From NCBI RefSeq assembly GCF_003334765.1, contig NZ_QOWT01000001.1: a stretch of 64,000 bases of DNA; one strand, written 5' to 3'. Position numbers and translations under genes: made by a program. Positions 2,673 to 7,401 of the stretch are shown here, piece after piece (the stretch's first letter is position 1; every line of letters begins with the position of its first letter). The stretch comes from Escherichia coli (GTDB lineage Bacteria; Pseudomonadota; Gammaproteobacteria; Enterobacterales; Enterobacteriaceae). Under the pieces are notes generated by a model. It searched no databases, was not told the origin of the DNA, and saw only the letters and a program-made list of their open reading frames with translations.

Positions 2673-3542
2673 TTAGCGATCGTCACTTAAATTAAGTAAC
2701 TGCTTATCAAAACGCGATTCCTTCAGCGCTTCTTTGACCCGCTTCAAGTTATCTCTGAATTTTGCACCGCGTCGCAAAGTAAATCCTGTCGCCAGCACAT
2801 CTATCACGGTCAGCTGTGCAAGTCGAGAAACCATGGGCATATAAATGTCAGTATCTTCCGGTACGTCGAGGGTAATTGCCAGCGTTGCTTCCCGGGCGAG
2901 CGGGGTACCCGCAGAGGTGAGGGCAATCACCATGGCGTCGTTTTCGCGTGCCAGCTGCGCCAGCTCGACCAGATTTTTTGTTCTTCCAGTGTGAGAAATC
3001 AGCACCACCACGTCTCCGTCGCTACAATTCATACAACTCATGCGTTGCAGCACGATATCATCGGAGTACACCACCGGAACATTAAAACGAAAGAACTTAT
3101 TCATCGCATCGTGGGCAACGGCGGCTGAAGAGCCTAATCCGAAAAAGGCGATTTTTTTTGCCTGAGTGAGCAAGTCGACGGCGCGGTTGATGGCAGATTT
3201 ATCCAGTGAATGACGGACATGATCAAGCGTTGCCATTGCGGACTCAAATATTTTCCCTGTGTATGATTCAACGCTGTCATCTTCATTGACATTGCGATTA
3301 ACATAGGGAGTGCCATTCGCCAGACTCTGTGCCAGATGAAGTTTAAAATCAGGAAAACCGCGCGTGTCCATGCTGCGACAGAAACGATTCACCGTCGGTT
3401 CGCTAACATTGGCTTCCAGTGCCATAGCAGCAATACTCGAATGGATCGCGTTATCGGGCGAAGCCAGAATGACCTCGGCAACTTTGCGCTCTGATTTGCT
3501 CAAATGTTCCAGCTGAGACTGGATTTTTTCCAGCATATTCAT
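2673..3542 (-). CDS. hexR: RpiR-family transcriptional regulator HexR
   Basis: ORF 289 aa ([30 protein letters not shown]...), HTH plus SIS domain architecture, divergent from zwf. Confidence 0.9.
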
Positions 3543-3815
3543 GATGTAAAGAGACTCACGGGTAATGACGATTTCCGCACTGAAAGAAATCGAAATGCAG
3601 TTTTGTCAGATATTACGCCTGTGTGCCGTGTTAATGACAAAAGCAGATAAAAAAGTTGTTATTTTTTTTCATAACATGATCAGTGTCAGATTTTTACCCA
3701 ATGGAAAACGATGATTTTTTTATCAGTTTTGCCGCACTTTGCGCGCTTTTCCCGTAATCGCACGGGTGGATAAGCGTTTACAGTTTTCGCAAGCTCGTAA
3801 AAGCAGTACAGTGCA

Positions 3816-3833
3816 CCGTAAGAAAATTACAAG
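3816..3833. promoter_or_regulatory. candidate HexR operator in hexR-zwf divergent promoter region
   Basis: imperfect palindrome GTAAgaaaaTTAC about 50 nt upstream of zwf start; HexR is known to repress zwf. Confidence 0.3.
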
Positions 3834-3879
3834 TATACCCTGGCTTAAGTACCGGGTTAGTTAACTTAAGGAGAATGAC

Positions 3880-5355
3880 ATGGCGGTAACGCAAACAGCC
3901 CAGGCCTGTGACCTGGTCATTTTCGGCGCGAAAGGCGACCTTGCGCGTCGTAAATTGCTGCCTTCCCTGTATCAACTGGAAAAAGCCGGTCAGCTCAACC
4001 CGGACACCCGGATTATCGGCGTAGGGCGTGCTGACTGGGATAAAGCGGCATATACCAAAGTTGTCCGCGAGGCGCTCGAAACTTTCATGAAAGAAACCAT
4101 TGATGAAGGTTTATGGGACACCCTGAGTGCACGTCTGGATTTTTGTAATCTCGATGTCAATGACACTGCTGCATTCAGCCGTCTCGGCGCGATGCTGGAT
4201 CAAAAAAATCGTATCACCATTAACTACTTTGCCATGCCGCCCAGCACTTTTGGCGCAATTTGCAAAGGGCTTGGCGAGGCAAAACTGAATGCTAAACCGG
4301 CACGCGTAGTCATGGAGAAACCGCTGGGGACGTCGCTGGCGACCTCGCAGGAAATCAATGATCAGGTTGGCGAATACTTCGAGGAGTGCCAGGTTTACCG
4401 TATCGACCACTATCTTGGTAAAGAAACGGTGCTGAACCTGTTGGCGCTGCGTTTTGCTAACTCCCTGTTTGTGAATAACTGGGACAATCGCACCATTGAT
4501 CATGTTGAGATTACCGTGGCAGAAGAAGTGGGGATCGAAGGGCGCTGGGGCTATTTTGATAAAGCCGGTCAGATGCGCGACATGATCCAGAACCACCTGC
4601 TGCAAATTCTTTGCATGATTGCGATGTCTCCGCCGTCTGACCTGAGCGCAGACAGCATCCGCGATGAAAAAGTGAAAGTACTGAAGTCTCTGCGCCGCAT
4701 CGACCGCTCCAACGTACGCGAAAAAACCGTACGCGGGCAATATACTGCGGGCTTCGCCCAGGGCAAAAAAGTGCCGGGATATCTGGAAGAAGAGGGCGCG
4801 AACAAGAGCAGCAATACAGAAACTTTCGTGGCGATCCGCGTCGACATTGATAACTGGCGCTGGGCCGGTGTGCCATTCTACCTGCGTACTGGTAAACGTC
4901 TGCCGACCAAATGTTCTGAAGTCGTGGTCTATTTCAAAACACCTGAACTGAATCTGTTTAAAGAATCGTGGCAGGATCTGCCGCAGAATAAACTGACTAT
5001 CCGTCTGCAACCTGATGAAGGCGTGGATATCCAGGTACTGAATAAAGTTCCTGGCCTTGACCACAAACATAACCTGCAAATCACCAAGCTGGATCTGAGC
5101 TATTCAGAAACCTTTAATCAGACGCATCTGGCGGATGCCTATGAACGTTTGCTGCTGGAAACCATGCGTGGTATTCAGGCACTGTTTGTACGTCGCGACG
5201 AAGTGGAAGAAGCCTGGAAATGGGTAGACTCCATTACTGAGGCGTGGGCGATGGACAATGATGCGCCGAAACCGTATCAGGCCGGAACCTGGGGACCCGT
5301 TGCCTCGGTGGCGATGATTACCCGTGATGGTCGTTCCTGGAATGAGTTTGAGTAA
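3880..5355 (+). CDS. zwf: glucose-6-phosphate 1-dehydrogenase
   Basis: ORF 491 aa ([34 protein letters not shown]...), canonical G6PD N-terminus, RBS aaggag upstream. Confidence 0.95.
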
Positions 5356-5589: not shown

Positions 5590-7401
5590 ATGAATCCACA
5601 ATTGTTACGCGTAACAAATCGAATCATTGAACGTTCGCGCGAGACTCGCTCTGCTTATCTCGCCCGGATAGAACAAGCGAAAACTTCGACCGTTCATCGT
5701 TCGCAGTTGGCATGCGGTAACCTGGCACACGGTTTCGCTGCCTGCCAGCCAGAAGACAAAGCCTCTTTGAAAAGCATGTTGCGTAACAATATCGCCATCA
5801 TCACCTCCTATAACGACATGCTCTCCGCGCACCAGCCTTATGAACACTATCCAGAAATCATTCGTAAAGCCCTGCATGAAGCGAATGCGGTTGGTCAGGT
5901 TGCGGGCGGTGTTCCGGCGATGTGTGATGGTGTCACCCAGGGGCAGGATGGAATGGAATTGTCGCTGCTAAGCCGCGAAGTGATAGCGATGTCTGCGGCG
6001 GTGGGGCTGTCCCATAACATGTTTGATGGTGCTCTGTTCCTCGGTGTGTGCGACAAGATTGTCCCGGGTCTGACGATGGCAGCCCTGTCGTTTGGTCATT
6101 TGCCTGCGGTGTTTGTGCCGTCTGGACCGATGGCAAGCGGTTTGCCAAATAAAGAAAAAGTGCGTATTCGCCAGCTTTATGCCGAAGGTAAAGTGGACCG
6201 CATGGCCTTACTGGAGTCAGAAGCCGCGTCTTACCATGCGCCGGGAACATGTACTTTCTACGGTACTGCCAACACCAACCAGATGGTGGTGGAGTTTATG
6301 GGGATGCAGTTGCCAGGCTCTTCTTTTGTTCATCCGGATTCTCCGCTGCGCGATGCTTTGACCGCCGCAGCTGCGCGTCAGGTTACACGCATGACCGGTA
6401 ATGGTAATGAATGGATGCCGATCGGTAAGATGATCGATGAGAAAGTGGTGGTGAACGGTATCGTTGCACTGCTGGCGACCGGTGGTTCCACTAACCACAC
6501 CATGCACCTGGTGGCGATGGCGCGCGCGGCCGGTATTCAGATTAACTGGGATGACTTCTCTGACCTTTCTGATGTTGTACCGCTGATGGCACGTCTCTAC
6601 CCGAACGGTCCGGCCGATATTAACCACTTCCAGGCGGCAGGTGGCGTACCGGTTCTGGTGCGTGAACTGCTCAAAGCAGGCCTGCTGCATGAAGATGTCA
6701 ATACGGTGGCAGGTTTTGGTCTGTCTCGTTATACCCTTGAACCATGGCTGAATAATGGTGAACTGGACTGGCGGGAAGGGGCGGAAAAATCACTCGACAG
6801 CAATGTGATCGCTTCCTTCGAACAACCTTTCTCTCATCATGGTGGGACAAAAGTGTTAAGCGGTAACCTGGGCCGTGCGGTTATGAAAACCTCTGCCGTG
6901 CCGGTTGAGAACCAGGTGATTGAAGCGCCAGCGGTTGTTTTTGAAAGCCAGCATGACGTTATGCCGGCCTTTGAAGCGGGTTTGCTGGACCGCGATTGTG
7001 TCGTTGTTGTCCGTCATCAGGGGCCAAAAGCGAACGGAATGCCAGAATTACATAAACTCATGCCGCCACTTGGTGTATTATTGGACCGGTGTTTCAAAAT
7101 TGCGTTAGTTACCGATGGACGACTCTCCGGCGCTTCAGGTAAAGTGCCGTCAGCTATCCACGTAACACCAGAAGCCTACGATGGCGGGCTGCTGGCAAAA
7201 GTGCGCGACGGGGACATCATTCGTGTGAATGGACAGACAGGCGAACTGACGCTGCTGGTAGACGAAGCGGAACTGGCTGCTCGCGAACCGCACATTCCTG
7301 ACCTGAGCGCGTCACGCGTGGGAACAGGACGTGAATTATTCAGCGCCTTGCGTGAAAAACTGTCCGGTGCCGAACAGGGCGCAACCTGTATCACTTTTTA
7401 A
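5590..7401 (+). CDS. edd: phosphogluconate dehydratase (Entner-Doudoroff)
   Basis: ORF 603 aa ([31 protein letters not shown]...), IlvD/Edd family. Confidence 0.95.

Follow-up and report, generated by a model that had tools for sequence, protein, structure and literature searches.

Where does the regulator HexR act in the gap between the divergent genes hexR and zwf of Escherichia coli, and how is that site placed with respect to the zwf promoter and to the oxidative-stress activators that reach it? The question was addressed in a window of 64,000 nt (the whole stretch of DNA that was analyzed, in whose coordinates all positions are given). The window is E. coli chromosome, and hexR and zwf are the features annotated in RefSeq on identical E. 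coli DNA. They stand in the gene neighborhood mepM, lpxM, pyk (pykA), hexR, zwf, edd, eda, and the gap is delimited as follows.

2673..3542, minus strand: hexR (yebK) coding sequence, RpiR-family HTH and SIS-domain regulator (ORF list, RefSeq)
3543..3879, unstranded: hexR-zwf divergent intergenic control region (337 bp, 39.5% GC)
3880..5355, plus strand: zwf, glucose-6-phosphate dehydrogenase (ORF list, RefSeq)

An earlier note on this DNA, made from the letters alone, had described the interval as a 337-bp, AT-rich divergent control region with a GTAA-N5-TTAC palindrome near zwf. The length was exact by the ORF list and by RefSeq annotation, the gene annotation agreed with the divergent arrangement, and the base composition was as claimed (39.5% GC in the spacer, compared with 50.2% in the window and 49–52% in the hexR and zwf genes). 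The region itself is already known and has been described previously. The product of hexR was identified as ‘transcriptional regulator HexR’ by NCBIfam NF008451 (565.6 bits against a cut-off of 296, residues 1–283), and the nearest solved structures were those of full-length RpiR-family proteins (8k3b and 8ju9; E about 1e-66). A 537-bp query across the spacer matched 5,426 of 5,426 complete E. coli genomes, with ≥99% identity in 5,410. For comparison among species, hexR loci were fetched from 80 Enterobacterales species, and 78 spacers were analyzed and aligned with MAFFT. The divergent hexR-zwf order was kept in 78/78 loci, with spacer lengths of 330–534 bp. Two Escherichia spacers, from E. 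coli SCPM-O-B-8794 (L003) and E. albertii (L002), measured 346–348 bp and not 337 bp.

The palindrome near zwf was located at 3818–3830 (GTAAGAAAATTAC, GTAA-N5-TTAC), with its end 49 nt before the zwf ATG. Extended to 17 bp, it takes the enterobacterial form of the HexR operator.

3816..3832, unstranded: predicted HexR operator CCGTAAGAAAATTACAA, core GTAA-N5-TTAC at 3818–3830 (conservation, PWM, half-sites)

The HexR consensus is said to be tTGTAATwwwATTACAa, as reportedly given by Leyn and colleagues in 2011. The E. coli site (CGTAAGAAAATTACA) matched the HexR consensus at 13/15 positions and the core at 8/8. Its left half-site is degenerate (CGTAAG, with C at position 2 and G at position 7); the right half, ATTACAA, is nearly invariant among orthologous sites. 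Pattern scans were not counted as evidence, since counts in the window were near chance and the bare pattern is weak evidence alone: the eight-base form GTAA-N5-TTAC gave 4 matches in 64 kb against 0.72 expected (1 of 100 shuffles reached 4), and the HexR consensus 15-mer TGTAATWWWATTACA with ≤3 mismatches gave 4 against 4.4 expected, which is chance level. A PWM was built from the orthologous sites, a scan of the kind that the earlier note had proposed as a check, and its best match in the 64-kb window was 3816–3832. The score of 20.97 bits (shuffle maximum 10.7 ± 2.4; reached in 0/100 shuffles) is partly circular, because the matrix was made from homologous sites. The other matches to GTAA-N5-TTAC (10345, 10635 and 19497) and the next PWM matches (62927 and 59410) were taken as chance, having a low score or lying between convergent genes.

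The palindrome is held to be real because it is conserved in position across species, and not because of scan counts. Its exact core was present in 73/78 Enterobacterales spacers and was matched with ≤1 mismatch in 78/78, the five non-exact cores each differing by a single base (GAAA for GTAA). Most species carry the perfect palindrome TGTAATAAAATTACA, from which E. coli differs at 2/15 positions; the CGTAAG left half was found in E. coli, Kluyvera, Pluralibacter and some others. The distance from the core to the zwf ATG is usually about 60 nt, and about 38 nt in Serratia and Pectobacterium. In the spacer alignment, mean column conservation was 0.92 for the operator versus 0.66 for the whole spacer; the operator was one of the two best-conserved 17-nt windows of the spacer and the best-conserved element near zwf. 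Among complete E. coli genomes, positions 3780–3879 were ≥99% identical in 5,419 of 5,426. The hexR gene and the palindromic site co-occurred in all 78 loci. Changes in the left half (T to G at position 7, T to C at position 2) were never compensated in the right half, which argues for recognition by a protein over an RNA stem.

The position of the palindrome was then read against the zwf promoter and ribosome-binding elements.

3784..3789, plus strand: zwf -35 region TTTTCG (GGTTTC/GTTTAC in relatives), 17-bp spacer to the -10
3807..3812, plus strand: zwf -10 hexamer TACAGT (TACAGT or TACATT in 76/79 sequences)
3868..3873, plus strand: zwf Shine-Dalgarno AAGGAG (sequence; GAGGAG/AAGGAG invariant in the alignment)

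The alignment gave GGTTT(C/AC)..N..CGTAAAAGCAGTACAGTG-CAnTGTAATAAAATTACAA as the core of the zwf promoter, with the TACATT form of the -10 in more distant species, and the -10 column was promoter-like in 24 species. The distance from the -10 to the palindrome core was 5 nt in 50 species and 6 nt in 11, that is, 5–6 nt in 61 of the 62 scored. The 5' end of zwf was reportedly mapped by Rowley and Wolf in 1991 at -62, i.e., 62 nt before the ATG; from this and the hexamer geometry, we infer a transcription start at about 3818/3819. Relative to that putative start, the predicted operator spans about -2 to +15. Because the core begins 5–6 nt past the -10, it covers the putative start and thus holds the standard position for steric repression.

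We consider it likely that the spacer is a control region shared by hexR and zwf and that 3816–3832 is a HexR operator lying on the zwf start, from which HexR is released by KDPG. We infer that HexR binds this site in E. coli and acts there as a repressor. In the proposed mechanism, a HexR (YebK) dimer on 3816–3832 would occupy about -2 to +15 and keep RNA polymerase from binding the zwf promoter or from forming an open complex there. Release of HexR by KDPG, an intermediate of the Entner-Doudoroff pathway, would lift the repression of zwf. Independently, SoxS/MarA/Rob bind 3757–3776 and activate the zwf promoter under oxidative or drug stress.

The site of the latter activators was assigned from its position.

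3757..3776, plus strand: mar/sox/rob box ATCGCACGGGTGGATAAGCG, SoxS/MarA/Rob activator site (position matches the published description)

The sequence ATCGCACGGGTGGATAAGC(G) at 3757–3776 on the zwf strand was the sole mar/sox consensus match in the spacer. Against AYnGCACnnWnnRYYAAAYn, 3757–3775 has 3 mismatches; such matches numbered 136 in the window against 143 expected, so a consensus match means nothing alone. Between the last base of the box (3776) and the first of the -35 (3784) there is a gap of 7 bp, and GCAC lies on the upstream side, in forward orientation. In the literature, the zwf soxbox is forward-oriented and unusually near the -35, 7 bp upstream of it (PMC9638938, PMC6900184), and is a forward, class I* box close to the -35 in Martin et al. 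(1999), as far as that study is cited in PMC6900184. SoxS binding and activation have been reported from SoxS-RNAP cryo-EM and transcription assays on the zwf promoter (PMC9638938). The earlier note had expected SoxS/MarA/Rob input and had given no location for it; comparison with the mapped zwf promoter elements placed the box at 3757–3776, in the position and orientation published for it. The box lies ~40 bp upstream of the operator and was poorly conserved in comparison with it (column conservation 0.51; GCAC in 38/79 orthologous spacers).

Published evidence on HexR itself is of two kinds. In regulon reconstructions, the core of the HexR regulon consists of zwf, listed for 72 genomes, and hexR, listed for 74; the effector is KDPG, and HexR is described as a local regulator of zwf in Enterobacteriales. 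The palindrome, as a predicted and deeply conserved HexR operator on the zwf start, falls within what is already known, zwf and hexR having been published as HexR targets. The HexR input to zwf named in the earlier note stands as a prediction of comparative genomics for Enterobacteria, and not as a demonstrated E. coli interaction. The conserved zwf site of Shewanella (TGTTGTTATATTACAACA) and the gel-shift-confirmed zwf site of P. aeruginosa (TGTTGTttaattACtACA) are quoted in PMC2911847; the half-site ATTACA is common to both and to the E. coli operator.

The second kind is direct binding by the E. coli protein. Parisutham and Lee reported a gel shift of ‘the yebK promoter’ by 6His-YebK, which was undone by 3 mM KDPG (PMC4488073); up to 1 µM protein was used, and no control DNA was described. 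The primers of that study were mapped to the window.

3574..3699, unstranded: 6His-YebK gel-shift fragment, bound and KDPG-released (PMC4488073 primers)

The fragment excludes the palindrome at 3816–3832. That it was nevertheless bound shows that HexR has, at least in vitro, another binding determinant in a different part of the spacer. The earlier note had named a HexR footprint elsewhere in the interval as the result that would count against its reading. The KDPG-reversible binding of 3574–3699 goes half way towards such a result, but does not refute binding at 3816–3832, because the palindrome was absent from the fragment. In glucose M9, YebK ChIP-exo by Gao et al. gave 16 weak peaks, none of them at zwf or hexR (PMC8464067); this null may be uninformative, because most of the peaks fall at sites (uxaB, uxaC, rplC, ygjD) that recur for other tagged factors. 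Among the published reports consulted, the YebK gel shift and ChIP-exo were found, and direct HexR binding at 3816–3832 in E. coli was not.

The bound fragment contains the other strongly conserved part of the spacer.

3655..3690, unstranded: most conserved spacer block GTTGTTATTTTTTTTCATAACATGATCAGTGTCAGATTTTTAC (best 17-nt windows of the spacer alignment)

The block falls inside 3574–3699 and holds a T8 run, an inverted repeat TGTTAT-N8-ATAACA (3657–3676), TGATCAGTGTCA, and a TGA-N6-TCA core at 3677–3688. Most relatives carry TGTTGT-N8-ATTACA there. In the two Escherichia loci with longer spacers (L003 and L002), TGTCAT...ATTACA or ATTACA replaces the K-12-type TGTTAT...ATAACA. The half-sites of the block are HexR-like, but they are separated by 8 bp and not by 3 bp. 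The PWM score at 3656–3672 (8.4 bits) was the best in the gel-shift fragment and the fourth in the window, and was not significant alone. The TGTTA...TAACA of the block was rejected as a GntR site, its spacing being 10 nt and not 4 and the half-sites of relatives being different.

Signals of other regulators have been reported around the locus. An FNR ChIP-chip peak labeled zwf/yebK (Grainger et al., 2007) maps to about 3634, near the block, when calibrated on the pykA motif at 2729–2752. The latter, given as an FNR motif of pykA by Grainger et al. (2007), reads ATAACTTGAAGCGGGTCAAAGAAG and is situated within hexR, at its 3' end. A YciT ChIP-exo peak was reported at U00096.2 1934276–1934306, with a signal/noise of 8.35, RNAP-bound and with zwf as the nearest gene (Gao et al., 2021). 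In the spacer, no FNR site (TTGAT-N4-ATCAA, ≤2 mismatches) was present, and the matches to the CRP pattern TGTGA-N6-TCACA (3675–3690 with 3 mismatches, 3545–3560 with 2 mismatches) were at or below chance. The published coordinate of the pykA FNR motif is 100 bp off the expected U00096.2 position.

In the alignment of 78 spacers, block-operator distances in Enterobacteriaceae fell into classes about 10.4 bp apart (147, 155–159, 166–170 and 177–179 bp), with none between; the 182–184 bp of the Serratia/Rahnella group does not fit these classes. The classes could reflect helical phasing, which is offered as an idea and not as a finding, and one that draws on perhaps 3–4 independent indels. A reading in which E. 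coli HexR controls the spacer through two elements, the zwf-start operator and the block about 150 bp upstream, is put forward only tentatively and is rather improbable. If it were true, a HexR-mediated loop with helix-face phasing would link the autoregulation of hexR with the repression of zwf. The block 3655–3690 may instead be the site of another conserved regulator.

In distant genera (Rahnella, Serratia, Cedecea and Buttiauxella), a second canonical-looking HexR site was seen in the middle of the spacer, e.g., TGTCATAAAATTACA at -232 from the zwf ATG; the loci concerned included L077, L078 and L080 (Rahnella), L068–L071 (Serratia) and L062–L065 (Cedecea). The E. coli sequence at 3711–3728 (CGATGATTTTTTTATCAG) aligns with this mid-spacer site and is decayed there.

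Two candidate promoters for hexR were predicted in its half of the spacer.

3610..3640, minus strand: candidate hexR promoter, -35 TTGTCA at 3640–3635, -10 TAATAT at 3615–3610, 19-bp spacer
3689–3661, minus strand: alternative candidate hexR promoter CTGACA-17-AAAAAT, predicted start at about 3654 (sequence prediction)

The -10 of the first candidate (TATATT) was predicted at the same column in 24 species and was conserved in the alignment; its -35 (TTGTCA) was not conserved, its 19-bp spacer is long, and its predicted start is at about 3603. A conserved CTCAT motif (3555–3559; CTCAC in E. coli, ATGAG/GTGAG on the hexR strand) lies about 15 nt upstream of the hexR ATG. It was rejected as an upstream in-frame start of hexR or as a small uORF, its frame relative to the ATG being variable. 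No obvious Shine-Dalgarno sequence was seen close to hexR.

Both leaders contain a hairpin that was recognized by covariation.

3569..3592, minus strand: hexR 5' leader hairpin CGAUUUC...GAAAUCG (3569–3575 / 3586–3592) (covariation)
3839..3856, plus strand: zwf 5' UTR hairpin CCUGG...CCGGG (3839–3843 / 3852–3856) (covariation)

For the hexR hairpin (alignment A1), 91.9% of cells were paired, compared with 29–55% when the arms were slid; 7/7 pairs had changed on both sides (e.g., GCGAAGACAC/GUGUUUUCGC in the Enterobacter pulveris locus L057), and 0/500 shuffles reached the observed values. G-U cells numbered 26 on the hexR-sense strand, as against 6 for pairing on the other strand. The support for the zwf hairpin (alignment A2) was similar but weaker: 83% of cells were paired versus 24–56% when slid, and 5/6 pairs had changed on both sides, the arms in relatives being CCTGG/CCAGG, GTGTCTGG/CCAGACAC and GGCCGG/CCGGCC. 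The zwf hairpin sits between the operator and the Shine-Dalgarno sequence. Single-sequence folds of the two E. coli leaders were not better than shuffles (z = +0.7 for the zwf hairpin), and the minimum-energy fold of E. coli does not use the hexR leader hairpin. Rfam 15 gave no family match; a spurious miRNA hit (E = 0.38) was far below the gathering score. An E. coli repeat, CTTAAGT/ACTTAAG (3844–3850 / 3864–3870), abuts the zwf Shine-Dalgarno sequence.

Four other accounts of the palindrome were weighed against its role as the HexR operator of zwf. HexR might act mainly or only through the hexR-proximal block 3655–3690, autoregulating hexR, with the zwf palindrome a decaying or weak relic. 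The sole binding experiment fits this account: it used 3574–3699 and was positive and KDPG-reversible, and in that fragment lie half-sites that resemble those of HexR but are not canonically spaced (TGTTGT is the half-site of Shewanella), together with its best PWM match, at 3656–3672. The two left-half mismatches of the E. coli operator would also be explained. However, strong conservation of the palindrome within and between species is not expected of a relic, and the CGTAAG left-half variant is also found in several other genera. The gel shift, moreover, was made at up to 1 µM protein with no control DNA reported, and the 8-bp spacer of the block would place its half-sites on opposite faces of the helix. 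We regard this account as unlikely. Another regulator might bind the palindrome, or the sequence might simply be core promoter and initially transcribed sequence with an incidental match to HexR. Overlap with the start site could explain part of the conservation through promoter function, and FNR ChIP-chip and YciT ChIP-exo peaks have been published around the locus. The conservation is dyad-symmetric, however, and reaches +15, beyond promoter function. The YciT peak, on conversion of its coordinates, presumably corresponds to ~3912–3942 of the window, just inside the zwf ORF, and the FNR peak lies near 3634, so that neither falls on the palindrome; the spacer lacks an FNR site at ≤2 mismatches, and hexR and the site go together in 78 loci. 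This account is very unlikely.

The palindrome might instead be conserved as RNA, forming at the 5' end of the zwf mRNA a small hairpin with an effect on stability or translation. The first 13 nt of the putative transcript contain it and allow a 4-bp stem, and a second hairpin in the same leader, nearby, does covary. At -1.4 kcal/mol, however, the stem would be very weak, and the sequence is invariant and not covarying. At position 7, substitutions disrupt the extended pairing and none is compensated; the sequence is, moreover, the motif of the regulator that the neighboring gene encodes, and no Rfam family matches. The RNA account was rejected on the weak stem and the uncompensated left-half variants, and we give it scarcely any probability. 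Chance, finally, would suit the near-chance frequency in the window of the bare pattern and of the mismatched consensus, but a position conserved across 78 species at a fixed distance from the -10 refutes it, and we regard this account as almost certainly wrong.

With 3816–3832 read as the HexR operator, the locus acquires practical coordinates. Glucose-6-phosphate dehydrogenase sets entry to the oxidative pentose-phosphate and Entner-Doudoroff pathways and hence the supply of NADPH, and the zwf promoter is both a textbook SoxS/MarA/Rob target and a common handle in metabolic engineering. With a predicted operator that overlies the start site and follows the sox box by 40 bp, either input can be edited at exact coordinates. 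Neither direct proof of HexR binding here nor a function for the block would alter the field's view of the system.

Several known systems can be set beside this arrangement. The mar/sox/rob box at 3757–3776 is identical with the published class I* box of zwf, with no differences. The lac operator O1, centered at +11, is a similar dyad operator just downstream of a -10 and acts by steric block; protein family and effector differ, and the analogy is one of mechanism only. HexR of Pseudomonas putida and P. aeruginosa (targets zwf, edd and gap-1) belongs to the same family, has the same effector and represses zwf together with Entner-Doudoroff genes. Its operator type, TTGT-N7/8-ACAA, had no match in 3543–3879, with 4 matches elsewhere in the window against 2.95 expected. 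In E. coli, unlike Pseudomonas, other regulators appear to be in charge of edd-eda. The GntR operator consensus has the form TGTTA-N4-TAACA, and a perfect 16-bp palindrome of this type (TTGTTACGCGTAACAA) was noted at 5602–5617, within the edd ORF and 13 nt from its start; the Pseudomonas HexR pattern TTGT-N8-ACAA matches it as well. A further comparison is with the gammaproteobacterial HexR operators of RegPrecise, which share with the E. coli site a 15–17 bp A/T-rich palindrome, TGTAAT/ATTACA half-sites and a location in the zwf-hexR spacer, and likewise have their cognate RpiR/SIS regulator adjacent and KDPG as effector. The predicted E. coli site differs from them in its degenerate left half (CGTAAG), and the HexR regulon, which comprises many operons in Shewanella and Vibrio, is reduced in Enterobacteria to zwf (and hexR).
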